NCBI RefSeq assembly: GCF_028641065.1
Contig: NC_073387.1
Location: forward strand, 21,948,001 to 22,012,000
Source of the DNA: Leucoraja erinacea
Taxonomy: Eukaryota
Reading direction: 5' to 3'
DNA: 64,000 nucleotides
A model generated the notes under the pieces. The model was not told where the DNA came from and did not search any database. It saw only the letters and a program-made list of their open reading frames with translations. Shown in pieces: positions 2,085 to 53,253 of the stretch; the first letter of the stretch is position 1, and every line of letters starts with the position of its first letter. Both the position numbers and the translations under genes were made by a program.

Positions 2085-2108
2085 CTCATTGGTAGACAGC
2101 GACACGAC
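2085..2108 (-). promoter_or_regulatory. Protocadherin promoter conserved sequence element (CGCT box, putative CTCF site) with CCAAT
   Basis: Minus strand GTCGTGTCGCTGTCTACCAATGAG, about 257 bp upstream of ATG 1841. The same motif precedes all eight exons that retain a 5' end. Confidence 0.85.
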
Positions 2109-2570: not shown

Positions 2571-2724
2571 GTAAGGATGAACAGCAGATGCCGGTTTAAT
2601 CCGAAGACAGACACAAACAGCTGGAGAAACTCAGCGGGACAGCCAACATCTCTAGAGAGAAGGGATGTATGACGTTTCTGGTCGAGACTCTTCTCCAGTC
2701 TCGACCCAACACGTCACCCATGGT
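2571..2724. mobile_element. Short Penelope-like/SINE-like repeat insertion
   Basis: Flanked by ATTGTGAGGT (2561-2570) and ATTGTAAGGT (2725-2734). Homologous to the terminal part of the 20583-21192 element and has an internal GTCGAGAC...GTCTCGAC hairpin. Confidence 0.6.
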
Positions 2725-4220: not shown

Positions 4221-4237
4221 ATGGGAACAAGTAACTG

Positions 4238-6769: not shown

Positions 6770-8351
6770 AAATAGCAGGGGACCGCGGGTCAAAGGAGTT
6801 GGAGGAATTGAGTGAAATCCAGGTTAGCCGGGAAGTGGTGTGAAATCCAGGTTAGCCGGGAAGTGGTGTTGGGTAAATTGAATGGATTAAAGGCCGATAA
6901 ATCCCCAGCGATTAAGATGGGAGGGAGGGAGAGAAAACGGGGAATTACAGACCAGTTAGTCTAACATCGGTAGTGGGGAAACTGCTAGAGTCAGTTATTA
7001 AAGATGGGATAGCAGTACATTTGGAAAGTGGTGAAATCATTGGACAAAGTCAGCATGGATTTACAAAAGGTAAATCATGTCTGACGAATCTTATAGAATT
7101 TTTCGAGGATGTAACTAGTAGCGTGGATAGGGGAGAACCAGTGGATGTGGTGTATCTGGACTTCCAGAAGGCTTTCGACAAGGTCGCACATAAGGGATTA
7201 GTATACAAACTTAAAGCACACGGCATTGGGGGTTCAATATTGATGTGGATAGAGAACTGGCTGGCAAACAGGAAGCAAAGAGTAGGAGTAAACGGGTCCT
7301 TTTTCACAATGGCAGGCAGTGACTAGTGGGGTACCGCAAGGCTCACTGCTGCGACCCCAGCTATTTACAATATATATTAATGATCTGGATGAGGGAGTTG
7401 AAGGCAATATCTCCAAGTTTGCGGATGACACTAAGCTGGGGGGCAGTGTTAGCTGTGAGGAGGATGCTAGGAGACTGCAAGGTGACTTGGATAGGCTGGG
7501 TGAGTGGGCAAATGTTTGGCAGATGCAGTATAATGTGGATAAATGTGAGGTTACCCATTTTGGTGGCAAAAACAGAAAAGCAGACTATTATCTAAATGGT
7601 GGCCGACTAGGAAAAGGGGAGATGCAGCGAGACCTGGGTGTCATGGTACACCAGTTATTGAAAGTAGGCATGCAGGTGCAGCAGGCAGTGAAGAAAGCGA
7701 ATGGTATGTTAGCTTTCATAGCAAAAGGATTTGAGTACAGGAGTATGGAGGTTCTACTGCAGTTGTCCAGGGTCTTGGTGAGACCACACCTGGAGTATTG
7801 CGTACAGTTTTGGTCTCCAAATCTGAGGAAGGACATTATTGCCATAGAGGGAGTGCAGAGACGGTTCACCAGACTGATTCCTGGGATGTCAGGACTGTCT
7901 TATGAAGAAAGACTGGATAGACTTGGTTTATACTCTCTAGAATTTAGGAGATTGAGAGGGGATCTAATAGAAACTTACAACATTCTTAAGGGGTTGGACA
8001 GGCTAGATGCAGGAAGATTGCTCCCGATGTTGGGGAAGTCCAGGACAAAGGGTCACAGCTTAAGGATAAGGGGGAAATCCTTTAAAACTGAGACGAGAAG
8101 AACTTTTTTCACACAGAGAGTGGTGAATCTCTGGAACTCTCTACCACAGAGGGTAGTCGAGGCCAGTTCATTGGCTATATTTAAGAGGGAGTTAGATGTG
8201 GCCCTTGTGGCTAAGGGGATCAGAGGGTATGGAGAGAAGGCAGGTACGGGATACTGAGTTGGATGATCAGCCATGATCATATTGAATGGCGGTGCAGGCT
8301 TGAAGGGCCGAATGGCCTACTCCTGCACCTAACTTTTATGTTTCTATGTTT
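6770..8351 (+). mobile_element. CR1-clade LINE, 5'-truncated RT region, present only in duplication copy A
   Basis: ORFs 6973-7326 and 7319-8257 (QHGF..KSCLTNL, YLDFQKAFDKV, GVPQGS, FADD) with one frameshift. Ends in a TTTCTATG-type tail. The empty site is at about 51285. Confidence 0.92.
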
Positions 8352-16062: not shown

Positions 16063-18400
16063 TCAATAGGCCTGAGACGTGGGAGCGCCGCATGGCTTCA
16101 AGAAGAGAAAATCACTTTTCGCTGACTCTGGAGACAGGCAGACCGAGTAGTGATGCGGTTCCGGCACGCGGACAACCCGACCTGTCCTGGGATAGCGTAA
16201 AGTTTCCTCTATGGCAGGTCTACCATTAAACTATCGTGCAACTCTCCACCATTGTAACAATAACTGGGGGTGTTATACCCTTGGATAATACTTCTGTCCT
16301 GTTTACACTTGATGCCAATCAACAGAACGATGATCAGAAGAAACATAACGGAAGTACAGCTGAAAATTATGATAATGTACACATTTGGATCAGAGAAATA
16401 TACTGGATTCTTCACCAAGGTGCTGCTTTCGGTGATTCCTTCAGTGCTGTTTTCCAAAACTCGAATGTTCATTGTAACTGTGCTGGACAGGCTTGGCTGC
16501 CCATTGTCCCTGACCAAGATGACTATAGTTTGTACAGCAGTGTCGGACTGGAAAATATTGCGCGCATCTCCGGAACGTTGTCCGACGTTGTACAAACCGG
16601 GGTCGGTAGATTTCACTATCTGAAAAAAGAGCTGTGCGTTCTGACCAGAATCTGCATCCGTTGCCATTATCTTGCTGACCAAGTACCCTTGACCCGCTGA
16701 CCGGGGTACGGTATCCACTGCTGATGAGCCACTTTGTTCTGAAGGTGAAACTATTACCGGCGCGTTGTCATTTTGATCCAGGATGATCACATTCACCATG
16801 GCGCTGCTACTCAACGGAGGCACCCCGGCGTCACGGGCTTGAACATGGATCTGGAAGTTTTTTAGTTCCTCATAATCAAAGGAACGCAGCGCGTAAACAG
16901 AACCGTTTTGGATATGGTTATCGAGAAAGGAGTAGGAAATATAGGAATTTTGATCCAGATCAGGATCTGTTGCGGTTACTGTGGAAACGGACGCACCCGG
17001 AGCGTTATTCTCCATTATATATATATGTTGTAGGATGACTCTGCGAATTGTGGTTCGTCATCGTTAACGTCCGAAATTGCAATATGGATGGTTGTATTGG
17101 ATGAGAGTGACGGCGACCCCAAGTCCCAGGCTGAAATAAGAATGTTATACTCAGGGATGGCTTCACGGTCCAACGTTTCACTCGTGGTTAATTTATAGTT
17201 GTTCGATACCTTTTGCAGTCGAAATGGGACGTTCTTTTGTCTTAACTCGCAACGTACTTGACCGTTCGCTCCAGAATCACGATCCATCACATTAATCAGA
17301 CATATGAAACTACCTGGTGGCGCATTTTCCGGGATTTTGTTGCAAGGTGATGGTACCTTTATCTCCGGTGCGTTGTCGTTCATATCAGTGACTTTGATCA
17401 GTACTTTGGAGTGTCTTGTCATTGCAGGGGGACCATGGTCCTGGGCTCGAATATCCAGAGAATAGCTGTTTACTTGTTCAAAATCTAGAAGTCCTTTGAC
17501 TCGAAGCTCCCCAGTAACTGGGTCTAAACTGAATAATTTTCGCGCTCTTATCAAAGAAATATCACTAAAACAATACGTCAGCTCCGAATTCAGTCCTTCG
17601 TCCAAATCATTTGCTTTGACTTTCAGCACCAACGTACCCCGCGGCGCGTTCTCACTTACGATGCCTCTGTAAATATCATGATCGAACACAGGTGGATTAT
17701 CGTTGATTTACAATACAGTAATGATAATCTGAGCTGTGGCTGATCTCTGAGGGGTGCCACCATCAGTCGCCGTAAACAAGAGTTGAAATGATGATTGCTG
17801 CTCTCGGTCCAAAGATCTCCCTAACAGCAACTCGGCAATCAAAGTACCGTCTTCGGCTCTCTGTGTTTTTAGAATAAAGTGCTCACTGGAGCTGATTGTG
17901 TAAGCGGTCACGGAGTTTGTAACAATGTCGGGATCATCCGCCCCCTCGAGTCGGAAACGTACACCGGGTGCACTTGCTTCCGATATCTGCAAGACAATGC
18001 TGCTCTGCGGGAAAGTGGGGGAATTGTCATTTACATCAAGAATCTCCAATTCCCCGTGATACACCTCCAAGGGGGTTTCCAGTATTGTTTCGAAATATAC
18101 AGTGCATTTATCATTCTGTCCACAAATACGTTCCCGGTCAATTTTTTCACGAATAGACATGATTCCATTGTCCAAACTGACCTTCAGGTACCGCCCTCCG
18201 TCATCAGAGTTCAGTCGGAATTTGCGAGCTGACAGTTGCCGTACATTCAGGCCCAAATCCACAGCGATATTCCCAACAAATGCCCCTTGCACCATTTCCT
18301 CGGGAATAGAATAACGAATTTGCCCGGAGATTGGACCCGGTGCACATATCACAAACATGTAAGCAAATGCTGTGAGGGCAAACCTCCGTGTGTGCGCCAT
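16063..18400 (-). pseudogene. Full-length protocadherin pseudogene, unit 3
   Basis: Split into ORFs 17708-18400, 17015-17689 and 16209-17015. Lesions: in-frame TAA at 17708-17710 (VL*INDN), +2 (AT)n slippage near 17017-17026, 39-nt deletion near 16905, 9-nt deletion near 16566, -1 frameshift near 16232. Confidence 0.92.
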
Positions 18401-18617
18401 TATTCCGCCTCTCCTCGAGTAATCCGTGCAAATCGTCAAACCACGAAATAAATATTCACATATATTCCCAATACCGAATCGAAACAGACGGGAAATCTAT
18501 CCTCTTCTGCCTGTTTCGTCAATCAAAACGCACGCACTGCTCGCCTCTCTAAACGCGTCCGACGTTTTTATTCTGGGATATTGGAGGGACAATGGATCCA
18601 TCTCTGTACTGGAGCTT

Positions 18618-23136: not shown

Positions 23137-25521
23137 TCAGCTTTGGGCTTGAGAGGTGGGAGCGTCGCGTGGCTTCAGGAAGAGAAAATCGCTTTTCGCT
23201 GACTCTGGAGACAGACAGACTGAGTATTGATTCAGTTCTGCCCCCCGGACTACCCGTCCCGTCCCAGGATAACACAATGTTTCCTCCATAGCTGGTCTTC
23301 CATTAAACGTGCCGTGCGAAACCCCATGATTGTAACAATAACTAGGGGTGTTATACTCTTGGATAATATTTCTGTCCTGTTTACACTTGATGACAATCAA
23401 CAGAATGATGATCAGAAGAAAGACCACGGAAGTGCAACTGAAAATGACGATTAAATAAACGTTTGGATCAGATAAATATTCTGGCGTCTTCACCAAGGTA
23501 CTGCTTTCGCTGATTCCTTCACTGCTGTTTCCCAAAACTCTAATGTTCATTGTAACTGTGCTGGACAGGCTTGGCTGCCCATTGTCCTTAACCAAGATGA
23601 CTAGAGTTTGTAAAGCAGTATCTGACTGGAAAATATTGCGCGCTGTTCTGACTTCTCCGGAACGTTGTCCAACGTTGTACAAACCGGGGTCGGTAGATTT
23701 CACTATCTGATAAAAGAGCCGTGCGTTCTGACCAGAATCTGCATCAGTTGCCATTATCTTGCTGACCAAGTACCCTTGACCCGCTGACCGGGGTACGGTA
23801 TCCACTGCCGCCGATTCACTCAGTTCTGAAGGTGAAATGATTACCGGCGCGTTGTCATTTTGATCCAGGATGATCACATTCACCGTGACGCTGCTGCTCA
23901 ACGGAGGCAGCCCGGCGTCACGGGCCTGTACATGGATCTGGAAGTTCTTGAGTTCCTCATAGTCAAAGAAACGCAGTGCGTAAATAGTACCGTTCATTGG
24001 ATTAATGGAGAGGTAAGTGGATACTGGCATGTTTTGGATATGATTATCGAGAAAGGAGTAGGAAAGGTAGGAATTTTGATCCAGATCGTGATCTGTTGCA
24101 GTTACTGTGAAAATGGATACACCCGGCGCGTTATTCTCCATTACATATACGTTGTAGAATGACTCCGCGAATTGCGGTGCGTTGTCATTTACGTCCGAAA
24201 TAGCAATCTGGATGGTCTTATTTGATGTTAGAGAAGGCGATCCCAAGTCCCAGGCTGAAATTACAATGTTATACTTAGAGATCGCCTCACGGTCCAACGT
24301 TTCACTGGTGACTAATTTATAGTGGTTCGATGTCTTTTGCAGTCGAAATGGGACGTTCTTTTGTATCTCGCAACGCACTTGGCCGTTAGCTGCGGAATCG
24401 CGATCGATCACATAAATCTGGGATATGAAACTTCCTGATGGAGTATTTTCCTGGATTGTGTTGGAAGCTGATGTTACCTTTACCTCGGGTGCGTTGTCGT
24501 TCACGTCAATGACTTTGATCAATATTTTGGAGTGTCCTGTCATTGCCGGGGAACCGTGGTCCTGGGCTCGAATATCGAGAGAATAGGTGTTTACTTCCTC
24601 AAAATCTAAAGGCCCTTGAACTCGAATCTCCCCAGTGCGTGGATCCAAACTGAATACATGTTGCACTGCTCGCAAAACAACATAATTGAAACGATATGTC
24701 AGCTCCGCATTCAGTCCTTCGTCCAAATCATTTGCTTGCACTTTCAGCACCAACGTACCCCGCGACGCATTCTCACTTACGCTGCTTCTGTAAATATCAT
24801 GGTCGAACACAGGTGGATTATCGTTCTGGTCGAATACCGTAATCAGAACCTGTGTCGTAGCTGATCTCTGAGGGGCCCCGCCGTCAAACGCAGTAAGCAT
24901 GAGTTGAAATGATGATTGCATCTCTCGGTCCAAAGATTTCTCTAACATCAATTCGGCAATTATAATACCGTCTTCGGATTTCTGTGTTTTTAGACTAAAG
25001 TGCTCATTGGAACTGATTGTATAGGCGGCCACGGTATTTGTACCAATGTCGGGATCATCCGCGCCCTCGAGTCGGAAACGTATCCCGGATACACTGGCTT
25101 CCGATATCTGCAAGGCAATGCTGCTTTGCGGAAAAGTGGGGGAATTGTCATTTACATCAATAATCTCCAATTCGCCGTCAGACACCTCAAACGGATTTTC
25201 CAGTATTGTTTCGAAACGTATAGTACATTGATCATTCTGCCCACAAATACGTTCCCGGTCGATTCTTTCACGAATGGACATGATTCCATTGTCCAAACTA
25301 ACCTTCATGTACCGCCCTCCGTCATCAGAGCTCAGCCGGAATTTGCGAGCTGACAATTGCCGTACATTCAGGCCCAAATCCACAGCGATATTCCCAACAA
25401 ATGCCCCTTGTTCCATTTCCTCGGGAATAGAATAACGAATTTGCCCGGAGATTAGTCCCGGTGCACAAATCGCAAATATGCAAGCAAACGCAGGGAAGGC
25501 AAACCTCGGTAGGTACGCCAT
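23137..25521 (-). CDS. Clustered protocadherin (gamma-C5-like), unit 4, 794 aa
   Basis: Intact ORF with signal peptide, EC1-6, TM and tail ending SDFLFLKPRDAPTSQAQS. Confidence 0.95.
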   Translation of the reverse strand: MAYLPRFAFPAFACIFAICAPGLISGQIRYSIPEEMEQGAFVGNIAVDLGLNVRQLSARKFRLSSDDGGRYMKVSLDNGIMSIRERIDRERICGQNDQCTIRFETILENPFEVSDGELEIIDVNDNSPTFPQSSIALQISEASVSGIRFRLEGADDPDIGTNTVAAYTISSNEHFSLKTQKSEDGIIIAELMLEKSLDREMQSSFQLMLTAFDGGAPQRSATTQVLITVFDQNDNPPVFDHDIYRSSVSENASRGTLVLKVQANDLDEGLNAELTYRFNYVVLRAVQHVFSLDPRTGEIRVQGPLDFEEVNTYSLDIRAQDHGSPAMTGHSKILIKVIDVNDNAPEVKVTSASNTIQENTPSGSFISQIYVIDRDSAANGQVRCEIQKNVPFRLQKTSNHYKLVTSETLDREAISKYNIVISAWDLGSPSLTSNKTIQIAISDVNDNAPQFAESFYNVYVMENNAPGVSIFTVTATDHDLDQNSYLSYSFLDNHIQNMPVSTYLSINPMNGTIYALRFFDYEELKNFQIHVQARDAGLPPLSSSVTVNVIILDQNDNAPVIISPSELSESAAVDTVPRSAGQGYLVSKIMATDADSGQNARLFYQIVKSTDPGLYNVGQRSGEVRTARNIFQSDTALQTLVILVKDNGQPSLSSTVTMNIRVLGNSSEGISESSTLVKTPEYLSDPNVYLIVIFSCTSVVFLLIIILLIVIKCKQDRNIIQEYNTPSYCYNHGVSHGTFNGRPAMEETLCYPGTGRVVRGAELNQYSVCLSPESAKSDFLFLKPRDAPTSQAQS

Positions 25522-25750
25522 GTTCCGTGATCAGTCAAAGTCCAACTCTAGGTCTTTCTCCGTGTAAATAGTCCAAGCACAATAAAATAACTCATATATA
25601 TTCCCACTACCGAATCGAAACAGATGGTATATCTATCCTCCTCAGCCTTTTTCGGCAATCGAAACGCAGGCACTCGCATTTCTCGTCGCGTCTGACGTCT
25701 TTATTCGGGGATGTGGGCGGGACAATGGATCCATCTGTGTACTTGAGCTT

Positions 25751-25774: not shown

Positions 25775-27383
25775 CAGTTCTTTTGCACAACTACAGCTAC
25801 AATTCTTAAAGCTGTACTGCTCTCCTACACATTTGATGGGATACAACCATAAAACGCCCTCTTTGAAAATAAATTTGAAGAATGTTTTTTTTTTTCATTT
25901 AACGTCGAAAATCACATCAGGCACGTCGGAAGAGGGTTATCCCCAGAACGTAAACATGTTTTTTCAGTACAGTCAAAATTCCACAACGAATAAATAAATG
26001 GCATCGTTATTTTTATGATGCAACATACCATATCGGATATGCAGTATTTGCTTACACATGTTTGACCCCTTACAATCACACCTTAGGGTAGTAAGAAAAT
26101 ATAAGAAGATAGCACAAAAAGCTAGAGTTTAACTCACCGGGACGGGCAGCATCTCTGTTCATATAACGACTACATAATTTCCCTTCTTTGATAAGATTAT
26201 TTCATTAGCACTTTCCAAATTTTGGAGAAGGTGTTCGTGAAAATAATACTTTCAATTGACCAATTGTTGAACCAACTTCCTCTTTAAAGTTATTGCTCGA
26301 GGAATGCATCGTCACGTCCAATACAAGCCGAGTTTATTGACCTGTGCATGCATAGGACGCAGAGGTACGGCTGCAATGTAAATCTTGCATGCAGCAGCTT
26401 AACAAGCACATAACTTGCTTGTTGTTGGAAACATCCATGGAAATTTTGTGATTTTTTGAATTCTTATTTAACATGAGATTTTATTTTTCTTTTTTTCGTG
26501 ATTGGTTGTGTTACTGCAATTTGCAACTAAATTACTGAATTGCCCATTAATCTGCAGATTTGTTCTCATTTTTTTGCCAATCCTCATTTTTACAATAGAC
26601 GACGTCGCTTTGCATTTTCATTCCGCATCAGGATGACATCAGGGCATTCTCGTTCATCTACAAATGGAGACTCAGCCAGTTCTCCTCAACCTGTGGTATC
26701 ATCCACAAGAAACAACTGCGAAAAATCCCCTCCTCACCTGGATCCAACTACCACTTGATACTGTTTGCTCTAAGCCTTCTCTATGCAGAACGGACCTCTC
26801 CACCAATCATGACGGGCTCGACACCAAACGTAATCTGTCTGTTTCTCTCCACAGGTGCTGCCAGACTCTCTGAGTTCCTCCAGCCAGTCGTCCTCACAAT
26901 GTCAGCATCAGGCATGAGTTGTGTTGCAAAAAAATGGGCTTAATTATTTCCTTCGCCTGTTGATTATTATATGTATATTTTGTGGCACGATCTATCAACA
27001 ATTCTTCTAGAATACATGGGTACCCAATCATTAAACTCTTCAACGCAACTTCCGTACATTAGTACTTTCGTCCACGTAAATGGATCCAGGTACCCAAACT
27101 GTTACGCAATAGGTTAAATGGCAACGCGTTTGTGCGCATTATCCAGTGACAAACAGAAGGACTGTCTTCAGAAATAAAACGTGCAATTTCAAGATGTTTT
27201 CATTCCAGTTGCGGGACATTTTACTTTTTCAATTACAACCGTACTCCCATTTAAGCGATAGTGAAAAACGTGCAACAAGGGTAAGTTTTCTAAATATTTC
27301 ACTCGCACTGATTCGCATGCCCCGGCAGAAATAAAATGGCCGCATACAAAATTGGCATTCATCAATCTACGTATCAGCGTAAT

Positions 27384-27996
27384 TTAACACTGACCTTGAG
27401 AGGTGGCAGCACCACATGGCTTCAGTAAGAGAAAAATCGTTTTTCGCTGACTGGAGACAGACTTACCGAGTATTGATTCAGATCTGGCCCGCGGACTGCC
27501 CGCTCTGTCCAAGGATAGGGTAACATTTCCTTCATCGCAGATCTTCCATTAAACGTGCCGTGCGAAACCCCACGATTGTAACAGTAACTGGGGGCGTAAT
27601 ACTCTTGGATAATATTTCTGTCCTGTTTACACTTGAAGCCAATCAATAGAATGATGATCAGAAGGCAGACCACGAAAGTGCAACGGATAATGACAATTAA
27701 ATAACCGTTTAGATCTGAGAAATATTCTTAATTCATCACCAAGGTACTTCTTTCGCTGATCCCTTCAGTGCTGTTTTCCAAAACTAATGTACATTGTAAA
27801 TGTGCTGGACAGGCTTGGCTGTCCATTGTCCTTAAGCAAGATGACTAGAGTTTGTAAAGCTGTACCTGACTGCAAAATATTGCGCGCTGTTCTGACTTCT
27901 CCAGAATGTTGTCCAACGTTGTACAAACCGGGGTCGGCTGATTTCATAATCTGATAAAGGAGACGTGCGTTCTGACCAGAATCTGCATCAATTGCC
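27384..27996 (-). pseudogene. 5'-deleted protocadherin pseudogene (EC6 part, TM, tail), unit 5
   Basis: Frameshifted remnants DADSGQNAR, LYNVGQHSGEVRTARNILQ, LLKDNGQPSLSS and LLIIILLIGFKCKQDRN. At 27997 it joins directly to upstream-spacer sequence homologous to 26158 onward. No CSE. Confidence 0.9.
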
Positions 27997-30900
27997 CTTC
28001 ATATCACGACTACATAATTTTCCCTTCTTTGATAAGAGTATTTCATTATCGCTTTCCAAATTTTGGAGAAGGTGTTCGTGAACATAATGCTTTCAATTGG
28101 CCAATTGTTCAACCGACTCCCTGTTTAATGGAAGTGATGTTTGGAGAGAGGCATCCTCACGTCCAAGTCAAGCCAAGTTTATCGACACGTACCTGCATAT
28201 GAAGCAGAGGCAATGCTGCAATGTAAATCTTGCTTGCAGCAGCTTTGCAAGCGCATGACACAGCAGACTCCGACAGATGTTTTGGGAACATAGAAAATAG
28301 ATGTCGGTGTGAAGTTTGGCGCGAAAAATTTGTGAATTTTTGAATTCTTATTTAACTTAGGATTCTCAGTTTCGTTTTTTCTTTTTTCTTAATTTGTTTT
28401 ATTACCGCAATTTGCAATGAAATGACTGGATTACCCATTAATCCGCAGATATTTTGTTCATTGAAAATACTCCCTAGTTAACATTAATCTCGTGGTACCA
28501 CACTTAGCGTGTAAACAAGTATTTTTAGTGAACGTTAACAAGGTGGCCCAAAGTACGTGTAATGTGGTTAGAGAATTGAAGTTTAATTTCTGCTCCTCGA
28601 GTTTGCAGTGGATGTTCAACGTCATGCACGATCCCGGCAAAATTTGAATGGGACAAGTTTTTCATGACGTAGAGGATAGAATCTCTTATCAAACTAAATG
28701 GTAATGTTCTCCATTGGTTGAAAATGTTCTGGAGATTTCTGATGCCACACTTGGTTTATTGGATATCAATTCCATATCATTCTCAAGTTAGCGCTGGGTT
28801 TCACCTTTTATATTCCATAACCACACACAAGTTTTACAATGACTGAACCACGCGCTCCCCGATCAAATCAAACTGCAATAAAATTCAATCATCCGAATAA
28901 TTGTAATAAAATCTGCAAATTAAAACGCAAACATCACGAAAAACTACAGGTGAGATGATGGATAATTCCTTCCACCAACGAGGAAGCATGCTGTTTTCGC
29001 AATTCAGCAATTAACTGATAAGCAGTCAAAAGCGCATCGATTCAGATATCATCCGTGGAAAGCAATGCAATCAACATTTCGGGGCTTGGCTGCTTTATCT
29101 GAACGATGAATTATTTAAAAGAGTTCATTTTTCAGTAAGTTTAATGATGGGAAGTAAAGGAGACAAAAAAGGAAAGAGGCTGATAGGACAAATTATGCTT
29201 CGTTGTTTCTGTGGTGTATGGCTAATAGCAAGGGAATGGGACGTGTTCAGGTTATTGAACAGACGGGGATTCCGTCTGAAATAAATTTGTTCTTTAAAAC
29301 TGTGAACAGTGGTGGACAGGGTCTCACCGAAGGCATATAGCACGGTTGTGTCCCTCAGCAGCGGTACTGAATGTAAGAGTCGAGGTGTAATATCTTTGAA
29401 TAAAACATTGGTTAGGCTAGATTTGAATTATTGTGTGCACATCTGGCATGCACAATATATAAGTTGTTGGGTTAAGTCGGATAGGTAGCAGGCCACACTG
29501 CAAAGAACGTTGCCAGGATGGGCAGGTTTACGTCATGAGGGGAGATTGTATAGGCTAGAACTGCATTCCCTGGAGTGAACATTGCTGAGCGGTGCCATGA
29601 CACAATCACGAGCGAGAGAGACAGAGTAGATTCCCACAGCCATTTCCAATGGTAGGGCGCTCCAAGACTAGAACATAAGTTTTAGGATCAGAGGGAGTAC
29701 TTTTAAAGTCGACCGGATAGCTATTAATTTCAGAAATACGGAATACGGCAGGTGGATTGAGATGTCAGTTTATGTGACGGAGACGGGAACAGTTAAATAT
29801 GTAAAAGGTACATAATGGGAATGTGACTATGTAGGGAATTGATGGACATGGAGTTAATGCTCGGGTGGAATTAGTACAGATAAACGTGATGGTCATCGTA
29901 GATGCGATGTAACGAATGGTTTGTTTGTATGATCTACACCTCGGCAAACATGATGCAAAACTAAACTGGAATGATAACAGACATGAGTGGCGAGCTCAAG
30001 AAGGTTGCAACTTGTCCATTTGGAAGATGAATGCTGTTTCTTAAGCGTGCACGTTTGCTTTGCACTTGTTCCAACAATGTTGGAATTCAGAGGCAAAAAT
30101 AATAGATAGTGTGAAATTGTGAACGGAAGTGTTAAACAAACCTTCCTGATTGCTGGGCGTGTTGGCAGTACCTTACCCAGAACAAAAAAAAACACAATTT
30201 GAACCTCACGGTCCGATATTAGGGGACATGATCAATTTTAAACAAATCAGTTTAATCCCTGCAGACTGTACGCACGTGCTCTACAATGCAATGGCACAAT
30301 CTTCTTGCAGTGTTACCACATTGGGAAGACCAAATACTTACATTATATTGACAGAAAGGCAAGCAGATCACTATTTCACCGAGAAGAATTTCGGGTCCTG
30401 TATGGTGGAACTGGTAAAATAAACGAACGTTACACGTTTTCTGGTCAGATGACTACCATATAGCTCGATGAAAAAGTGTTACATTTGAACTGCTGAACAG
30501 ACAGGGAAGGGGGTATCTACTCAGTGACGGGATTATGTTTAAATTGAGGTAAATTGAATTAAATGTGAAAGTTGGTGAATGGAGGATTCAATAAGGAAAT
30601 GCTGTTCTTGTTCCATCCAGGAGAGCCAAGATGCTGAGAACCGATCCCTTCCCGATTGCTGGGCGTGTTAGCAGTACCTTACCCTGAACAAAAAAACACA
30701 ATTTGAACCACACGGTCCGATATTAGGGGACATGATCAATTTTGAAACACATAAATGAATAGTTAACATTATCTTTAAATATTACAATGTACGATATTTA
30801 ATTTAAAACACCGTGTTACACTAACGGGATACACATCTATGTAATAAGCGTGTTCGGTATTCCGTCTACGCATGCCCAGGTCATAGGTCACTAGTTATAA

Positions 30901-31112
30901 ACAGTCTCGGCAACGGTGGTGCTGCGTTGTGTGCAGGCTTGCGTTTCGTCCGTGGTCGGGGTCGGGGTGGGGGTCGAGGTGTGGGTGTTCTTTTTGCTGC
31001 TGGGGCGTCCTCGTCACATCCCCAGTGTCCCGTCCCTGTCCGTAGGTGGCCGGGGTGGCTTTGGGCTGGCTATGCGGGGATTCCGGCAGCCCTCCACCTC
31101 CACCCCCTCCCC

Positions 31113-31275
31113 TCAGTCTGACACCGAGATCCTGCTGAAGGTGGGCAGCCGCCGGCTGGATGAAGTGGCAGCGAGTACCGTAGGGGCAGAGCGCAGCTCG
31201 GCCAAGCCGTGGGCGAACTGGCACCATCCAGCCGCCGCTGGGCCCGTCCCCGTCCCCTCCCGAGTGTACCGTCCG
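31113..31275 (-). pseudogene. Internally deleted ZFP36/TIS11 (tristetraprolin family) gene fragment
   Basis: CQFAHGLAELRS (end of CCCH finger 1), CPYGTRCHFI (end of finger 2, shifted frame) and RRLPTFSRISVSD-stop (family C-terminal NOT1-binding motif), in the correct order within about 110 nt. Confidence 0.85.
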
Positions 31276-31482
31276 GGGGCCACCAGGTACGTCCGGGGCG
31301 GCGGGACAGGCAGAATCGAGCTGGGGCCGGCGCCTCCCCTCAGCTGGCTGCGGGCCTGGGTCAACACTCCCGCCCGCGGACCTGTGGATATAAGACCCTC
31401 CTTTAGACTTTCTACGCATTAGATTTTTGCGCCGTGGTTGGGATGGATGGGAGCGGGGATGTCCATGTGCGCAAGCAACAAA

Positions 31483-31877
31483 TGACTTAAAGTTTGCGTT
31501 GAGTGAACTGAGTGTTCTTAACGTTCTCCCGCTACACCGACGTTTTGTGAGTGGTTCGATCCCAGCTTCAGCTCAACAAACGTAGGTCACATTACCCGGA
31601 CAGGCGGCGGGGTAACTGGAGCAGACATGAGGCATCGGCGATGCTCTGGAATCCTAGTCGGCCGCCGCCAAGCATATGGGTCGAGGAGGCAGCGCCCGAC
31701 CCGGGGAGTAGAGGTGTCAGTTCTACCAGCGGCGAGCGGAGAGGCACCAGCTACCGCGGGCCGCTCACCTGTCGGGCGCTGACTCATCGATTCCGGGATC
31801 CAACCACTCTCACAAAACGGCGGTGTACGACAAGGACGGTAAGAACACTCAGTTCACTCAACGCAAACTTTAGGTCA
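31483..31877. mobile_element. MITE-like element with about 80-bp imperfect inverted ends
   Basis: 31483-31520 and 31840-31877 are reverse complements with 1 mismatch. Looser complementarity extends inward to 31563 and 31795. Confidence 0.7.
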
Positions 31878-32352
31878 GGTGTTCCTTGCGACCGCGGAAA
31901 TCTCCAGCGCGGTCGAGACGAGGTGGTTCTGAAGGTGCATTCTCTCGATTGAGGATCATTTTATCGACTCTCCTAGAAGCAGTGAGCCATTTCTTTACCA
32001 ATGGTTGTCTGTCTCGCTGAAATCTCTCTCCCCACCTCTCACAGTCTCCCCCTGTCTTCCACTCGCATTTACCTCTTCTCTCTCGCTGTTGCACCCCGCA
32101 CTCCCCACTGCCGCGCGTTTTTGTTTTAAACTCTCGGATGACCTTTGACAAATCCCACGATTCCTTGTGTTTTCGAAATACCGAACTGGCTTATTGCAGT
32201 CATTTTCTTAACCGTGTTATTCCCTCTATTGTAGATGATCTCCTTCACATTCGGAGCCGGAATGTGATGTATAAATTTAACACATCTGCAATTATTGGTG
32301 ATTGCTCGTGATTGAGAAAATGTCCTTTGGGGTCATGGAATGCCATTAACCC

Positions 32353-32984
32353 GGTTTCCTCATGCACCCGGGGGTGTCCTTTAGGGCCATGCAAAACAAT
32401 GCCTTGGTTTTTGTTGGTTTGCAGCATAAACGAAACTTAGTCTAGTACACTATGTGTTAACACAGCATAGATAGAGTTGATATGGAAAGGATGTTTCCAC
32501 TGGAGGTAGAGTTTTGTACCAGTGGTCATAGCCTCCGAGTTAAAGGGCGCTCTTTTAGAAAGGAGGCGAGGAGGAACTTCCTGAGTCAGACGGTAGTTAA
32601 TCTGGGCAACTCATTGCCACAGAGGGTTGTCAGTGGATATGTTTAAAACAGAGATAGATAAATTGTTGATTAGAACTATCTATCTCTGTTTTAAACATAT
32701 CCACTGACAACCCTCTGTGGCAATGAGTTGCCCAGATTAACTACCGTCTGACTCAGGAAGTTCCTCCTCGCCTCCTTTCTAAAAGAGCGCCCTTTAACTC
32801 GGAGGCTATGACCACTGGTACAAAACTCTACCTCCAGTGGAAACATCCTTTCCTTATCAACTCTATCTATGCTGTGTTAACACATAGTGTACTAGACTAA
32901 GTTTCGTTTATGCTGCAAACCAACAAAAACCAAGGCATTGTTTTGCATGGCCCTAAAGGACACCCCCGGGTGCATGAGGAAACC
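32353..32984. repeat. Near-perfect long inverted repeat (308-bp arms, 16-nt spacer)
   Basis: Arms 32353-32660 and 32677-32984, one mismatch seen (GATATGG vs CCTTATC). Spacer AATTGTTGATTAGAAC. Confidence 0.95.
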
Positions 32985-33097
32985 AGGTGGGGAGAAGTCA
33001 GGAAAATAGGATTAGGATGCAGAGATCAGCCATGATTGCATGTCGGGGGAGGCTCGATGGGCCGACTGGCCAAATTCTACCCCTATAACTTGTGAAC
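32468..33097 (+). mobile_element. CR1 LINE 3' fragment interrupted by the fold-back duplication
   Basis: CR1 3' sequence at 32468-32676 (atgtttccactgg..ggtcatagcctc..) resumes at about 32988 (ggggagaag..gatcagccatgatt..ctcgatgggccga). Confidence 0.75.
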
Positions 33098-34171: not shown

Positions 34172-36553
34172 TTAGCATTCTTGAGAGGTGGGTGCGCCGC
34201 ATGGCTTCAAGAAGAGAAAATCGGTTTTAGCTGACTCTGGAGAAAGACAAACCGAGTATTGATTCGGTTCTTCCACGCGGAGTACCCTTCCCGTCCCAGG
34301 ATAGCGTAAAGTTTCCTCCAGGGCAGGTCTTCCACTAAACGTACCGTGAGAACCCCCATAATTGTGAGCATAACTAGGCGAGTTATACTCTTGGATACTA
34401 TGTCTGTCCTGTTTACACTTGATGCCAATCAATAGAATGATGATCAAAAGAAAGACCACGGAAGTGCAACTGAATATGACGATTAAATAAACGTTTGGAT
34501 CAGAGAAATATTCTGGATTCTTCACCAAGGTACTGCTTTCGCTGATTCCTTCAGTGCTGTTCCACAACAATCTAATGTTGATTCTAACTGTGCTGGACAG
34601 GCTTGGCTGCCCATTGTCCTTAACCAAGATGACTAGAGTTTGTAAAGCATTATCTGACTGCAAAATATTGCGCGCTGTTCTGACTTCTCCGGAATGTTGT
34701 CCAATGTTATACAACCCAGGTGCGGTAGATTTCATCATCTGATAAAAGAGCCGTGCGTTCTGACCAGAATCGGCATCAGTTGCCATTATCTTGGTGACCA
34801 AGTACCCTTGACCGGCTGTCTGGGGCATGACCTCCACTGTTGCTGAGCCAATTTGTTCTGAAGGTGAAACAATTACCGGCGCGTTGTCATTTTGATCCAG
34901 GATGATCACATTCACCGTGGCGCTGCTGCTCAACGGAGGCACCCCGGCGTCACGGGCTTGAACATGGATTTGCAAGTTCTTGAGTTCCTCATAGTCAAAG
35001 GAACGCAGCGCGTAAATAGTACCGTTCATTGGGTTAATAGTGAGGTAAGCGGACACTGGCAAGTTTTGTATATGATTATCGAGAAAGGAGTAGGAAACAT
35101 GGGAATTTAGATCCAGATCAGGATCCATTGCAGTTACTGTGGAAACGGACGCACCCGCCGCGTTATTTTCCATTACATATACGTTGTAGGATGTCTCACT
35201 GAACTGTGGTGCGTTATCATTAATGTCCGAAATTGAAATCTGGATGGTTTTATTTGTTGATAGTGACGGTGAACCCAAGTCCCAGGCTGAAATAAGAATG
35301 TTATACTCAGAGATCGCTTCACGGTCCAACGTTTCACTGGTGACTAATTTATAGTGGTTCGATGTCTTTTGCAGTCGAAATGGGACGTTCTTTTGTATCT
35401 CGCAACGCACTTGACCGTTCGTTTCGGAATCGCGATCGATCACATAAATCAGGGATATGAAACTTCCTGGTGGAGTATCCTCCTGGATTTTGTTGGAAGC
35501 TGATGTTACCCTTATCTCAGGTGCATTGTCATTCGCGTCAATCACTTTGATCACAACTTTACAGTGCCCCGTCATTGCAGGTGAACCGTGGTCCTGGGCT
35601 TGAATATCGAGAGAATAGCTGTTTACTTCTTCAAAATCTAGAGGCCCATTAACTAGAATCTCCCCAGTGCGTGGATCCAAACTGAATACATTTTGCACTC
35701 TTCGCAAAGTAGCATCATGTAAACGATATGTTAACTCCGCATTCAGTCCTTCGTCCAAATCATTTGCTTTGACTTTCAGCACCAACGTACCCCGAGGCGC
35801 GTTCTCTCTGACGCTACCTCTGTAAATATCATGATCGAACACAGGTGGATTATCATTGTTATCGAATACAGTAATGAGAATCTGAGCTGTGGCTGATCTC
35901 TGAGGGGTTCCGCCGTCAATCGCAGTAAGCAAGAGTTGAAGGGATGATTGCTGCTCTCGGTCCAACAACTTCTCTAACAGCAACTCGGCTATTATAATAC
36001 CGTCTTCGGCTCTCTGTGTTTTTAGACTAAAGTGCTCACTGGAACTGATTGTGTAAGCAGCCACGGTATTTGTACCAAAGTCGGGATCATCCGCGCCCTC
36101 GAGTCGGAAACGTACACCGGGTGCACTGGCTTCCGATATCTGCAAGACAATGCTGCTCTGCGGGAAAGTGGGAGAATTGTCATTTACATCAAGAATCTCT
36201 AATTCCCCGTGATACATCTCCAAAGGGTTTGCCAGTATGGTTTCGAAAGGTATAGTACATTTATCAGTCTGTCCACAAATGCGTTCCCGGTCGATTCTTT
36301 CACGAATAGACATGATTCCATTGTCCAAACTGACCTTCATGTACCGCCCTCCGTCATCAGAGCCCAATCGGAATTTGCGAGCTGACAATTGCCGTACGTT
36401 CAGGCCCAAATCCACAGCGATATTCCCAACAAATGCCCCTTGCTTCATTTCCTCGGGAATAGAATAACGAATTTGCCCGGAGATTAGACCCGGTCGACAT
36501 ATCACAAATATGCAAGCAAACGCAGTGAAGGCAAACCTCGGTAGGCACGCCAT
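34172..36553 (-). CDS. Clustered protocadherin (gamma-C5-like), unit 6, 793 aa
   Basis: Intact ORF from ATG 36553 (MACLPRFAF...) with EC1-6, TM and tail ending TDFLFLKPCGAPTSQEC. Confidence 0.95.
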   Translation of the reverse strand: MACLPRFAFTAFACIFVICRPGLISGQIRYSIPEEMKQGAFVGNIAVDLGLNVRQLSARKFRLGSDDGGRYMKVSLDNGIMSIRERIDRERICGQTDKCTIPFETILANPLEMYHGELEILDVNDNSPTFPQSSIVLQISEASAPGVRFRLEGADDPDFGTNTVAAYTISSSEHFSLKTQRAEDGIIIAELLLEKLLDREQQSSLQLLLTAIDGGTPQRSATAQILITVFDNNDNPPVFDHDIYRGSVRENAPRGTLVLKVKANDLDEGLNAELTYRLHDATLRRVQNVFSLDPRTGEILVNGPLDFEEVNSYSLDIQAQDHGSPAMTGHCKVVIKVIDANDNAPEIRVTSASNKIQEDTPPGSFISLIYVIDRDSETNGQVRCEIQKNVPFRLQKTSNHYKLVTSETLDREAISEYNILISAWDLGSPSLSTNKTIQISISDINDNAPQFSETSYNVYVMENNAAGASVSTVTAMDPDLDLNSHVSYSFLDNHIQNLPVSAYLTINPMNGTIYALRSFDYEELKNLQIHVQARDAGVPPLSSSATVNVIILDQNDNAPVIVSPSEQIGSATVEVMPQTAGQGYLVTKIMATDADSGQNARLFYQMMKSTAPGLYNIGQHSGEVRTARNILQSDNALQTLVILVKDNGQPSLSSTVRINIRLLWNSTEGISESSTLVKNPEYFSDPNVYLIVIFSCTSVVFLLIIILLIGIKCKQDRHSIQEYNSPSYAHNYGGSHGTFSGRPALEETLRYPGTGRVLRVEEPNQYSVCLSPESAKTDFLFLKPCGAPTSQEC

Positions 36554-36794
36554 TGTTCCGCGCCCTGTCAAAGTCCCAGACCAGGCCTCTCCTCGGGTAA
36601 TCCGTGCAATGGTCCACGCACCAGATAAAAAATCGTATAGATTTCCAATCCCGAATTCAAACAGACGGGAAATCTATCGTCCTCAGCCTGTTTCGGCAAT
36701 GGAAACGCAGGCACTGCTCGCCTCTCTCGTCGCGTATGACGTTTTTATTCTGGGATGTGGGAGGGGCAATGGATCCATCTGTGTGCTTGAGCTT

Positions 36795-37204: not shown

Positions 37205-38410
37205 TGAAGGAATGAGGGGGCATCGCGTTGAAATATACAGAATAGTGAAAGGCTTGGAAAAGTTCAGTTCAAGTGTGTTGATTGTCATGTGTCCCTATAT
37301 AGGACAATGGAATTCTTGCTTTGCTCCACACAGAACATAGTAGGCATTTACTACAAAACAGATAAGTGTGTCCATATACCATAATGTACATATATACACA
37401 CATGAAAAATCAACTGATAAAGTGCAAATAACAGATAATGGGTTAATAATAATCAGAGTTTTGTCCGAGCAAGGTTTAATAGCCTGATGGCTGTGGGGAA
37501 GTAGCTATTCCTGAACCTGGTTGTTGCAGTCTTCAGGCTCCTGTACCTGAAAATAGCAGGCAGATGAGTGTGTGGCCAGGATGGTGTGGGTCTTTGATGA
37601 TACTACCAGCCTTTTTGAGGAAGCGGCTGCGATAGATCCCCACGATGCAAGGAATGTCAGAGCCGATGATGGACTGGGCAGCGTTTACTACTTGTAGTAT
37701 TTTCCTCTCTAGGGCGCTCAAGTTGCCGAACCAGGCCACGATGCAACCGGTCAGCGTGCTCTCTACTGTGCACCTGTAGAATTTAGAGAGTCCTCCTTGA
37801 CAAACCGGCTCTCCGTAATCTTCTCAGGATGTAGAGGCGCTGATGAGCTTTCATGATAATTGTATTAGTGTTCTCAGACCAGGAACGATCTTCTGAGATG
37901 TACACGCCCAGGAATTTGAAGCTCTTGGCCCTTTCAACCATCGATCCGTTGATATAAATCTTACTCCTACTCCTTCCAAAGTCCACAAATCAGTTCCTTG
38001 GTTTCGCTGGTGTTGAGGGCCAGGTTATTGCGCTGGCACCATATGGACAGTTGCTCGATAAAGTGGATGTGGAGAGGATGTTTCCATTAGTGGGAGAGTC
38101 TAGAACTAGAGGTCATCGCCTCAGAATTAAAGGACATATTTTAGAATGGAGATGAGGAGAAATTTCTTGCTTCAGAGGGTGGTGAGTCTATCGTATTCTT
38201 TATTACGGAAGGCTGTATAGGCCAGGTCAGTGGATATTTTTAAGGCATGGTTATATAGATTCTTGATTAGTTATGTGCAGATGTTAGGGGGAGAAGGCAG
38301 GAGAATGTTATTAGAAGAGAGTGATGGATTACCCATGATCGAATGGCGAAGTAGACTTGATGGGCCGAATTGCCTAATTCTATTCGTAATCCTTATGACC
38401 TTATGACCTC
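37205..38410 (+). mobile_element. CR1 3' fragment split by a nested LINE
   Basis: ...aatagtgaaaggcttgga (37240-37258) continues as aagtggatgtggagaggatgtttcc at about 38060. Ends in a CCTTATGA tandem tail at about 38390-38408. Confidence 0.7.
37262..38056 (-). mobile_element. Rex1/Babar-like LINE 3' fragment nested in CR1
   Basis: ORFs 37783-37986 (INGSMVERAKSFKFLGV.ISED.SW..KAHQRLY.LRRL) and 37533-37739 (WFGN..ER..LQ..V..A..IIG..KKA.SII.DP.HP). Confidence 0.8.
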
Positions 38411-38995: not shown

Positions 38996-41900
38996 AAAGC
39001 TTTCGATTGGCCAATTGTGGAACCAAATTCCTGTTGAAAGGAAGTAATTGTTGGAGAAATGTACCATCACGTCCAAGTCCAGCCGGGTTTATTGACACAT
39101 GCATGCATAGGTAAGGAGGCGAGGTTCTGCTACAATGTAAATCTTGCCTGCAGCAGCTTCGCAAGTACATAGTCCAGCACACCCCGACGGATGTTGTTGG
39201 AAGCATAGAAAATAGGTATCGGTGTGAGGTGTAGCACAGGAAATTTTGTGAATTTTCCAATTCATATTTAATTTGAGATTCTCTCTTTCATTGTTCCTTT
39301 TCCGACTGGCTTCGTGCCTGCAATTTGCAACTAAGTGACTCAATTGCGCATTATTCCGCAGATTTGTTCTCATTTAAACTGCGTCCAAATTAATACTAAT
39401 CTCTTGTTGCCACGTTTACCGTGTAAAATACCCTTTTCAGTGAACGTTAACAAGGTGGTTTAAAATACTTGTAATGTGTTCAGACATTCGAAGTTTATTT
39501 CCACTACTGGAGTTGGCATTGGGTGTTCAACGTCGTATATGATCACGGCAAAGTTTGAATAGTACGTTCTTCATGTCGTAGAGGATAGAACGTTATTCAA
39601 ACTCAATGCATTGGTCATGTTCACCATTGGGTGAAATATTTCTGAAGGTTTTTGATGCCACAACGGGTTCATTGGGTGTCAGTTAGACGCCATTCTCATG
39701 CATTTTACTATTTATATTTTTATATTACATCACATCACAAACGTTTTACAATGACCGAACCAGGGTGGCATCTGGGACATCCCTTCCATCCAAGATTGGT
39801 GATTCAACAATTCCTCCTCAACTGCCCGTATTCCCCACACAAATCAACAGCCAAAATGTCCCATCCTCAACTGTCTCCAACCTTTCTCTCGCCAACACCC
39901 CCCCCCCCCTCCCCCCACACACACAACCTCACCTCCCTCTCTGTAGTCAATGGCTCGAGACCAAACATCGTCTACTCTCCGCAGCTGCTGTCTGACAGGG
40001 CTGAGTTTTTACAGTAAGTTAATTTCTTGCACAGGATTTCACCAGCTGCCATCCCGCCTTTTACCGAAGTGGTATTAATCGAGACTTGCAGCATCCGCTG
40101 TATATTATTATATATACACATATTATTACTACTATTATCAACAATTCAGGTGGAACGCATTGCTTAGCAACCAGAAAACATTTCAACGCAATTTTGCATT
40201 GTCATTCAATCCAGGTACCCAGATCATTTGCATAATTGACCAAGTAGCATCACATTTGTGCATATTATCAAATGACAAGCAGAAGGCCTTCCCTCACAAT
40301 TACCAAAGCCATTTCAAACGGTTGATCTAGAATCCCTTCAACTCAATAGCTTCCTTTCTTGTTCTGCTGTTCACACACTACTTACACAGTCCCGGTTCTA
40401 GTTCAGTTCATTAATCTGCAAATGTGAGATATTAAAAAAGTTAAAGAATTTATTATTTTCATTGATCCTTAATGTGTTTGCCACTGGAATAACAACATAT
40501 TACTTGTGTTTTAAATATTTTCTTATCCTTATTCATAATTTATGTGTGAAAAGATATTTAATCTGCGGCAGGCAGCGACTGTATCAGCGTGATGTGGGCT
40601 GATGCTTTACCTACAGGTGGTGTGAATGTACCGTTAAGGCACAGATTAATCGCCGAGGAAAACTGAGTACAGGGTTGGCCCTGCGAAGGAACCGCCAATC
40701 CGATATAAGACATTTAACTGCGAAATGCCTGCCCTTCAGTATTGGATAGATTAAGTGGAGGGTCTGTGCTGTACCAAGTTTGCGGTGGATGCGGTGCGTT
40801 TCCCCCAGCCATCTCGCCCAGTGCAAGTTAACCAGCACAGTTTGTCAGCCCTTGTTAACAGAGGCTCTTTGTGCAGGTGTTACCCGAAGCTCACTTCCAC
40901 CGGGTGGCGCCACCGTAGCGCAACCTTACCAACAGTCTGTTTGTCCTTTCTACTGTTTTTTATTGTTTTAAGTATGAACTAATAGTTTGTTTCAATGTTT
41001 CTTGGTTAGATTATGTGGGGGGGGGGGGGGGGGGGGGGGGGGGGATAGGAGGATACTTTTTTTCAGTATCTTTTCTCGATGAAGAACTCATATTACGGGT
41101 TGGCTCCGCATTTGCCCACTCGCTGGGGAGGTTGGTGCCTCCTTCGAAGAGAGCAAGAACAGGTCCCATTAGCTGGTGAGCTGCGACCCACTACTGAGTG
41201 AAGCCTCTAATTTGGCAGTGGTTCAAATGGCTGCAAATTCTTATAATTATCACCGCCCGGTCACCCAGCTTCGGCTCCCAACTGTGTACCCCGGCAGACT
41301 GGAACCAACCCCAGAGGTTAAAGCGACAACATCTTTATTTAAGCCAACCCACCTCGAAAGTTTAACCAGCCCGTTCGAATCCAATCTGAACTTTTCACCC
41401 AGCACATTCTCCTCGTTTCCTTCAGTGCAGGAAGGATGTTTAATAGGAATGCAATTGGTTGACCACACAACTTGTAATTTGTGTAAATCAATACCGAATT
41501 TGAATGGCTGTGACTCAGGCTAATGCCAGGGATTTTATAATTGACAGGTTCGTTCCAGGTATTCTTTTATTGGGTATTGGGTTAATAATTCAAATAGATA
41601 CAATTGTGGATTTGTGCAACCTGCAGTACGCGATGGCCTACTGCTGACATATTTGGCGGATACATTTATTTAGAAATCCCATTGAAATGAATACGCTGGT
41701 CCGTACACACACAGTCGCTCGGCTGGCGAAAATGTTTATCCCGAATGATCCATGACCTGGGCATGCGCAGATGTAATACCGAACTCGCTTATTGTTTCGT
41801 TACAGCAATTTCCAACTGAAGGACACAATTACCTATTAATCCATATTTATTTTTCTCGTATGTAATGTGCCATAGATAACACTAAATTATTGGTACCACA

Positions 41901-51387: not shown

Positions 51388-53253
51388 AATGGAAACTAGT
51401 AGATTAGCTATGGATACTATGAGTTTCAAAGTAAAAGAAGTACTGACACTTTTGAAAAATATAAAAGGGGATAAATCTCCAGGTCCTGACAGGATATTCC
51501 CTAGGACATTGAGGGAGGTTAGTGTAGAAATAGCCGGGGCTATGACAGAAATATTTCAAATGTCATTAGAAACGGGAATAGTCAACTGTTGGGCACAAAT
51601 GCAGGAGTAGCAAGATGGGTAGCAACAGTGGCTGAATGGGAAAAGCCAGAGGGTAATGGTGGATGGTTGTTTGTCGGGTTGGAGGCAGGTGACTAGTGGG
51701 GTGCCTCAGGGATCGGTGTTGGGTCCTTTGTTGTTTGTCATGTACATCAATGATCTGGATGAAGGTGTGGTAAATTGGATTAGTAAGGTGGATAGGGGTT
51801 GTTGAGGATTGGCGTACTGCGCATGTTGTTCCATTCTTTAAAAAGGGTTCTAAGAGTAAACCTAGCAGTTATAGGCCTGTTAGTTTGACTTCAGTGGTGG
51901 GCAAATTAATGGAAAAGATACTTAGAGATAATATATATAAGCATCTGGATAAACAGGGTCTGATTAGGAACAGTCAGCATGGATTTGTGCCTGGAAGGTC
52001 ATGTTTGACTAATCTTCTTGAATTTTTTGAAATGGTTACTAGGGAAATTGACGAGGGTAAATCAGTGGATGTTGTCTATATGGACTTTAGTAAGGCCTTT
52101 TGACAAGGTTCCTCATGGAATGTTGGTTAAGAAGGTTCAACTGTATAAATGCAGGAGTAGCAAGATGGGTAGCAACAGTGGCTGAATGGGAAAAGCCAGA
52201 GGGTAATGGTGGATGGTTGTTTGTCGGGTTGGAGGCAGGTGACTAATGGGGTGCCTCAGGGATGGGTGTTGGGTCCTTTGTTGTTTGTCATGTACATCAA
52301 TGATCTGGATGAAGGTGTGGTAAATTGGATTAGTAAGTATGCAGATGATACCAAGATAGGGGGTGTTGTGGATAATGAGGAGGATTTCCAAAGTCTCCAG
52401 AATGATTTGGAAGAATGGGCTGAAAGATGGCAGATGGAGTTTAATGCTGATAAATGTGAGGTGCTACACCTTGGCAGGACAAATCAAAATAGGACGTACA
52501 TGGTAAATGGTAGGGAATTGAAGAATACAGTAGAACAGAGGGATCTGGGAATAACCGTCCCTAGTCCCTTGAAGGTGGAATCTCAAATAGATAGGGTGGT
52601 AAAGAAAGCTTTTGGTATGCTAGCCTTTATAAATCAGAGCATTGAGTACAGAAGCTGGAATGTAATGTTAATATTGTACAAGGCATTGGTGAGACCAAAT
52701 CTGGAGTATGGTGTACAATTTTGGTCGCCCAATTATAGTAAGGATGTCAACAAAATAGAGAGAGTACAGAGGAGATTTACTAGAATGTTGCCTGGGTTTC
52801 AACAACTAAGTTACAGAGAAAGGTTGAATGTTAGGTCTCTTTATTCTCTGAAGCGCAGAAGGTTAAGGGGGGGACTTGATAGAGGTCTTTAAAATGATGA
52901 GAGGGATAGACAGAGTTGATGTGGATAAGCTTTTCCCTTTGAGAATATGGAAGATTCAAACAAGAGGACATGACTTCAGAATTAAGGGACATAAGTTTAG
53001 GGGTAACATGAGGGGGGTCTTCTTTACTCAGAGAGTGGTAGGGTGTGGAATGAGCTTCCAGTGGAAGTGGTGGAGGTAGGTTCGTTGGTGTCATTTAAAA
53101 ATAAATTGGATAGGCATATGGATGAGAAGGGAATGGAGGGTTATGGTATGAGTGCAGGCAGGTGGGACTAAGGGAAAAAAGTTGTTCGGCACGGACTTGT
53201 AGGGCCGAGATGGCCTGTTTCCGTGCTGTAATTGTTATATGGTTTTATGGTTA
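51388..53253 (+). mobile_element. CR1-clade LINE, 5'-truncated, present only in duplication copy B
   Basis: KSPGPD, QHGF..RSCLTNL, YMDFSKAF, GVPQG and YADD motifs. Ends in a GGTTATAT-type tail with TATGAG on both sides (51382-51387, 53254-53259). The empty site is at about 8447. Confidence 0.92.

Follow-up and report, generated by a model that had tools for sequence, protein, structure and literature searches.

In animals, host gene sequence carried between the terminal inverted repeats (TIRs) of a non-autonomous DNA transposon has been described under the name Pack-TIR. The sections of the survey of Tan et al. (2021) used here report four multicopy Pack-TIRs (1.4 %) from frog and alligator, the example having three copies, and zero Pack-TIRs from the elephant shark (PMC8277862). 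An element in a skate genome shares with these multicopy Pack-TIRs, as portrayed in those sections, the host gene sequence between the TIRs of a non-autonomous element, the GC-rich cargo, short breakpoint microhomology and likely repeated transposition. It differs from them in a cargo of likely hundreds of copies, in a cargo that is coding sequence of a regulator and in nested deletions, and neither a target-site duplication (TSD) nor a cognate transposase was found for it. Young cases are defined in the same sections by a captured piece of 80-120 % of the parental length without further deletions, whereas the skate piece shows two apparent deletions, of 61 and 329 nt. Since the detection filter described there excludes deleted cargo, the skate element would have been missed; the 12 supplementary files of PMC8277862 that were consulted mention neither ZFP36 nor skate.

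A second kind of precedent is offered by the Helitrons of vespertilionid bats, in which pieces of host genes, once captured by a vertebrate DNA transposon, likewise multiplied to hundreds or thousands of copies. Thomas et al. (2014) count 12,382 in all, and 28-1,381 where the captured region is not a 5' end, according to the passages drawn on here (PMC4224331). These bat elements are, however, of the rolling-circle type, whereas the skate element has symmetric inverted ends. Canonical Helitrons are not known to carry terminal inverted repeats. Plant Pack-MULEs and Pack-TYPE elements, as characterised in part of PMC8277862, likewise combine a non-autonomous TIR structure with rearranged, GC-rich gene fragments and are often multicopy. 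In contrast to these plant elements, the skate element has an animal host and a short TIR of 22-25 nt, and a TSD of 8-10 nt was not found. By its cargo the element is allied to the ZFP36/TIS11 proteins (TTP, ZFP36L1, ZFP36L2), whose CCCH finger ends and CNOT1-interacting tail it repeats nearly letter for letter; unlike these, the skate piece has no intact finger and no start codon, and an Ile-to-Thr exchange lies in the motif. The role of the tail motif in recruiting CCR4-NOT through CNOT1, stated as known in the original prediction for this DNA, is documented in the literature; in the passages seen, TTP Ile318 is among the residues inserting into a CNOT1 groove, and Arg315 and Phe319 were tested by mutation (PMC11939966). 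No report of a ZFP36-bearing skate transposon was present among the top literature listings searched, with Repbase and Dfam outside that search, so that the family may already have a repeat-library name. The passages of the little skate genome paper that were consulted do not mention ZFP36 (PMC10115646).

The window, the whole stretch of DNA that was analysed, comprises 64,000 nt of Leucoraja erinacea (NC_073387.1, positions 21,948,001 to 22,012,000). Three pieces of a ZFP36-family gene lie here inside a 1.35-kb TIR repeat, likely a non-autonomous transposon with a captured part of exon 2 that spread to hundreds of sites, the copy in the window being probably non-functional; the probability of this reading is put at roughly 0.8. 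The protocadherin cluster named as the setting in the original prediction was recovered, with clustered protocadherin exons on both sides of the element: one upstream at 34172..36673 on the minus strand (best relative among the neighbouring ORFs a Leucoraja erinacea protein at 95 %) and one downstream at 23137..25530, also minus, recognised by ORF and domain reading. Another protocadherin exon, 16209-18496, is split into three ORFs and represents a pseudo-exon or an assembly error, and 26570-28459 is a partial duplicate of the 3' part of a protocadherin exon plus nearby spacer, without a long ORF. Reverse-transcriptase fragments (Pfam RVT_1) occur at 7292-8257 and 52173-52892, and 4338-4979 is matched at 76 % by 7616-8257 in inverted orientation. 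Immediately to the left of the element lies a direct repeat of about 107 nt (30141-30247 and 30647-30752), 93 % identical. A palindrome at 32349-32988, 150 nt from the right end of the element, has 312-nt arms of 99 % complementarity and a 16-nt loop; it is either a young fold-back duplication or an assembly artefact and would form long double-stranded RNA if transcribed. Part of its arm is 76 % like 38057-38189. Rfam yielded seven matches, all below the gathering score, of which six were hairpins on this palindrome and one a snoRNA (E 0.079).

The three signature pieces were all located at the coordinates given in the original prediction, on the minus strand. The finger-1 end (31188..31223) corresponds to residues 124-135 of XP_078287002.1, a ZFP36-family protein of the skate Rhinoraja longicauda with 289 amino acids and two zf-CCCH domains. 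The finger-2 end (CPYGTRCHFI, 31157..31188) covers residues 156-165 and two bases of His166, and the CNOT1-interacting C-terminal motif with its stop (31113..31156) covers residues 277-289 at 31154-31116. The pieces are collinear with this protein at 12/12, 10/10 (31188-31159) and 12/13 residues. One frame leads from the finger-1 end through 11 unrelated residues to the C-terminal motif and the stop at 31115-31113; the finger-2 end is read in a second frame. When the locus was masked, no other place in the six frames of the window gave more than 5/12, 5/10 and 7/13, and judged by these comparisons the likeness is not due to chance. PDB searches ranked TTP and TIS11d first for both finger pieces: the best match of piece 1 was TTP 1m9o, which is weak (E 0.19), and piece 2 was clearer, with 1rgo at E 8.6e-5. 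A 40-aa query gave two of 67 candidate proteins at weak E-values (0.48 and 0.56), which proved right on inspection and included XP_078287002.1; the homologue search with the 84-aa ORF had no match at E ≤10 among 509 candidates. A 101-aa frame query retrieved 14 multi-finger proteins; the seven examined were not of the vertebrate ZFP36 type, and the two that were aligned matched through a finger end only.

The claim that two deletions had fused the pieces held: losses of 61 and 329 nt are deduced from the spacing in XP_078287002.1, the protein of another species. The 390 nt lost together restore the frame between the finger-1 end and the C-terminal motif, for which the chance prior is one in three. 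About 36 of the 289 parent codons remain. Zinc is bound in the parent by residues 109, 118, 124 and 128 in finger 1 and by 147, 156, 162 and 166 in finger 2. Cys124 and His128, two of the four ligands of finger 1, are kept, as are Cys156 and Cys162 in a different frame; the first Cys of finger 2 is gone and its last His is cut. Two intact in-frame CCCH fingers were not present at the locus, nor was a zf-CCCH match. That the most conserved motifs survive was thus half true: the pieces remain, but neither finger is whole and the parts retained vary from copy to copy. At the junction of the 61-nt deletion two bases are shared between the Ser and Phe codons; at the 329-nt junction no clean microhomology was found. 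The tail is closer to that of TTP and of Xenopus zfp36 than to that of TIS11b in a direct sequence comparison, so the parent is likely a TTP orthologue despite its database name, and XP_078287002.1, named ZFP36L2-A-like, may on this likeness be the skate ZFP36 orthologue. All pieces derive from exon 2 of the vertebrate ZFP36 gene layout, and therefore a loss of the intron is not visible. The terminal motif was absent from the metagenome and viral contigs searched, and XP_078287002.1 had 48 pattern matches and 0 confirmed relatives among viral contigs; a viral origin is thus without support.

The container was delimited by inverted arms, GC content and a depth jump to 30842..32196, an element of 1,355 bp and 59 % GC that is likely a non-autonomous TIR DNA transposon. 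Its left TIR lies at 30843..30864 on the plus strand and its right TIR at 32174..32196 on the minus strand; the arms of 25 nt are 84 % complementary. One DNA run (X1) and two RNA runs (X22 and X24) of organism A, together with one DNA run (X3) of organism B, were aligned to 30700-32300 at 80 % likeness. X1 contains 0.45 of the sampled window words, and the runs may stem from another individual or species than the window. Organisms C-H share few of these words and do not enter the counts; the run search named no RNA run as a carrier of the words, which says nothing about expression. In the DNA alignment the depth rose at 30808 from about 60 to more than 10,000 and dropped back past 32211. At 30843, 104 contigs of X1 and 107 of X3 leave the element, and their flanks beyond this base agree at 0.34-0.35; such mutually unrelated flanks are expected from many independent insertions. 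On the right, 54 and 55 contigs have loose ends at 32173, beyond which they follow the repeat in its family form. The window holds three matches to the end sequences, compared with 0.02 expected, and contains a second copy of the left end (41724..41794, minus strand; 81 % over 70 nt with an exact 19-nt terminal match) that has neither a partner end nor ZFP36 cargo.

For the TSD, 8-nt stretches compared at the likely ends agreed at 4/8 at best, which is about as compatible with chance (P 0.11) as with a decayed TSD (P 0.06-0.19), and eight symmetric boundaries tried had no exact repeat of 2-11 nt. The terminal base of the element may be the C preceding 30843, which would presumably suit ends of the hAT or P type. 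Neither a transposase nor an autonomous partner was found, and the six-frame reading of the element had no transposase-sized ORF. An empty site among the paralogous spacers was not identified, the flanks having no clear match elsewhere in the window. The ZFP36 pieces are bracketed by a degenerate GC-rich direct repeat of about 105 nt, with copies upstream of the pieces (31234..31342) and downstream of the stop (30996..31101). Its local alignment score of 55 was reached by 0 of 1000 shuffles (maximum 45), and it may come from the capture or promote the loss of the piece. Further inside, an inverted repeat at 31455..31905 with 97-nt arms (31455-31551 and 31809-31905) of 81 % complementarity occurs in the family at a depth of 1,300-6,000 in X1. 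This repeat may be a nested small element, a flanking duplication of which was not seen; it includes at 31553 what we take to be a B-box-like motif.

The depth at the two ends of the element was 88,562 and 120,535 in X1 and 46,041 and 66,357 in X3, the outer flank bins having 11-68. At 31141, within the CNOT1 motif, the majority letter was present in at least 67 (X1) and at least 73 (X3) distinct contigs, with total depths of 15,264 and 10,150. The finger-2 end reached 4,571 and 4,730, the finger-1 end 1,391 and 1,249 in X1 and X3, respectively, and finger 1 was covered by 28-45 contigs in the two organisms. Scaled on single-copy-like depth this gives 2,600-7,700 copies for the ends, 450-1,200 for the motif, 135-550 for the finger-2 end and 40-150 for the finger-1 end, figures to be taken as orders of magnitude because contig depth is not copy number, the contig counts being the firmer floor. 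Copies with cargo are probably dispersed in the genome; no listed contig spans the whole element. The terminal 60-120 nt (30808-30969 and 32104-32211) have 5-8 times the depth of the ZFP36 motif and lead into other interiors, which indicates that several non-autonomous subfamilies use the same ends. At least 75 joints occur in the family, and 11 of the 15 listed are skips of varied size. Inside the element, the window copy departs from the majority of the family at no fewer than 39 positions. C>T and G>A changes account for about half of the variable places, 177 of 356 in X1 and 168 of 343 in X3, a share that would be expected from the decay of methylated DNA. The possible RYxxE lead-in near 31270 in the original prediction did not withstand this comparison: base 31268 differs in 2974 of 2994 (X1) and 2110 of 2110 (X3) of the depth, changing Tyr to Asp (codon read by eye), and from this site to the finger-1 end the DNA bears no match to the parent.

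Within the interior of the family, depth peaked in both organisms in the two bins that span the motif and the stretch behind its stop. A family that had captured tristetraprolin and amplified its CNOT1-binding tail most, in hundreds of copies in at least two species, might steer CCR4-NOT decay with its ZFP36 cargo, or might regulate through small RNAs or peptides the brake of the host on inflammatory mRNAs. We consider such a role unlikely; the depth of these bins could be explained by neutral history. Somewhat less probable again is an origin from a bigger, autonomous transposon with a complete and functional ZFP36 as cargo, which tuned the mRNA decay of the host and decayed to deletion derivatives, an explanation that says the same of the window copy and differs on the master element. 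Less-deleted copies do exist. In X3, 29 contigs depart from the window sequence at 31190, and what follows reads by eye as residues 147-155 of the parent (7/9); hence the 61-nt deletion is absent there and they run into finger 2, and interiors vary widely in the family. Furthermore, 28 reads of X24 (agreement 0.96) extend from the motif into parent-like codons, matching 9 of 10 of the residues 267-276 by eye, and may come from the host gene or from a long element copy. As far as the reads go this RNA of a single source is nucleotide-level evidence of an expressed ZFP36; its source is most simply the ordinary host gene, however, which takes weight from a whole-gene cargo. Against that cargo also stand the six frames of the element, in which no further ZFP36 sequence was found, in addition to the missing transposase-sized ORF, and the viral contigs without a relative of XP_078287002.1. 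If the 329-nt deletion is common to most copies, as the depth across 31157-31174 suggests, the amplified form was already without His166 and the motif frame.

Expression of the copy in the window was assessed at single bases. At 31141 the window has a Thr codon in the motif, while Ile is found in about 99 % of the aligned DNA depth and in all 40 RNA reads (37 of X24 and 3 of X22, mates possibly counted twice). With the Thr codon in 0 of 40 reads, none of them came from the window copy. At 31174 all 15 RNA reads differ from the window, at 31205 eight of nine, and reads at least 99 % alike to the window numbered 2 of 371 and 0 of 413 aligned reads. The RNA result covers about 5 % and 1 % of the two runs, and X1 shares 0.45 of the window words, thus the silence of this copy is weakly shown. 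In the single-cell RNA run X22, 50 reads within 32104-32173 carry a poly(T) run before 32139, where transcripts of other copies likely end or prime just inside this end of the element. A non-coding action on the host, in which small or antisense RNAs from hundreds of methylated copies cross-react with ZFP36 mRNA, would have a parallel in maize, for which captured genes are described with small-RNA cross-reaction to the donor genes in the parts of the preprint used here (bioRxiv 10.1101/777037). Likely hundreds of copies are more than 80 % identical to the expressed ZFP36 RNA, and the element ends are present in RNA on both strands. Over the finger pieces, however, RNA depth did not exceed about 4 reads per bin in X22 or X24, and the read strand in X24 was mixed. 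At the locus itself the antisense RNA suggested in the original prediction is not supported by orientation: ZFP36 piece and protocadherin exons are both on the minus strand, so read-through would be sense. We regard this action as improbable.

Very improbable is a one-off event, in which a ZFP36 retrocopy or repair filler entered a pre-existing small TIR element by gap filling and was never mobilised, as in a single-copy Pack-TIR. Most animal Pack-TIRs in the sections of PMC8277862 used here are of the single-copy kind, a degenerate direct repeat brackets the piece, and some contigs join about 30965 to 31244 with the ZFP36 piece missing. The occurrence of the motif in 67 and 73 contigs at a depth above 10,000 and of finger 1 in 28-45 contigs from two organisms speaks against it, and so does the poly(A) tail, which was looked for after the piece and not found.

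The 84-codon ORF of the original prediction was confirmed at 31367-31113 on the minus strand, with a GTG start; besides sequence foreign to ZFP36 it contains the finger-1 end, then 11 residues read off frame and then the C-terminal motif, and thus unites finger-1 end and motif in one frame. The nearest in-frame ATG, at 31466, leads to a stop after 15 codons. The ORF matched no Pfam family up to E 0.1, and the ESM Atlas returned weak leads only (scores ≤0.80). The NOT1-binding peptide once proposed for it, i.e. an expressed mini-gene of 84 residues that competes for CNOT1 without RNA binding, is the least credible of all explanations: the open frame does end in the motif and retains the equivalents of Arg315 and Phe319, but it starts with GTG and has no usable ATG, its Ile318 equivalent is Thr, the allele is absent from the RNA, the copy has diverged from the family majority, Pfam gives no match and the ESM Atlas scores are weak.

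The copy in the window is most likely a decayed copy of a Pack-TIR-like transposon, a dead passenger and not a mini-gene. Inverted repeats of one element at both ends, an interior host gene with an identifiable parent (the match to the skate ZFP36 protein and the RNA running into parent-like codons) and several cargo copies, their dispersal being probable, were found together, as in a multicopy Pack-TIR. The captured, internally deleted gene copy proposed originally is confirmed as to capture and deletions; the vehicle, a high-copy TIR element, had been missed. Part of ZFP36 exon 2 likely entered a non-autonomous TIR element, perhaps through the template switching or gap repair put forward for Pack-TIRs, and a transposase acting in trans likely mobilised this element many times. 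The lineages would have shed interior DNA stepwise, with the 329-nt deletion older than the 61-nt one and the latter possibly made by end-joining at the 2-nt microhomology. The window copy would then have landed in a protocadherin spacer and undergone neutral decay, probably with loss of methyl-CpG. It looks dead because both fingers are broken, the ATG is missing and a rare Ile-to-Thr exchange affects a residue in contact with CNOT1; a function of this copy is unlikely.

The locus itself is probably junk. The family would stand out by its size among gene captures by cut-and-paste transposons in vertebrates, the unusual parts being its scale and the excess of the CNOT1 tail. Its copies can confound read mapping, probes and the annotation of zfp36 in the little skate. 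Hundreds of differently deleted copies of one exon constitute a natural series for the timing of capture and deletion, and the family allows a direct test of whether TIR elements of animals set up a plant-like small-RNA conflict with the donor gene.
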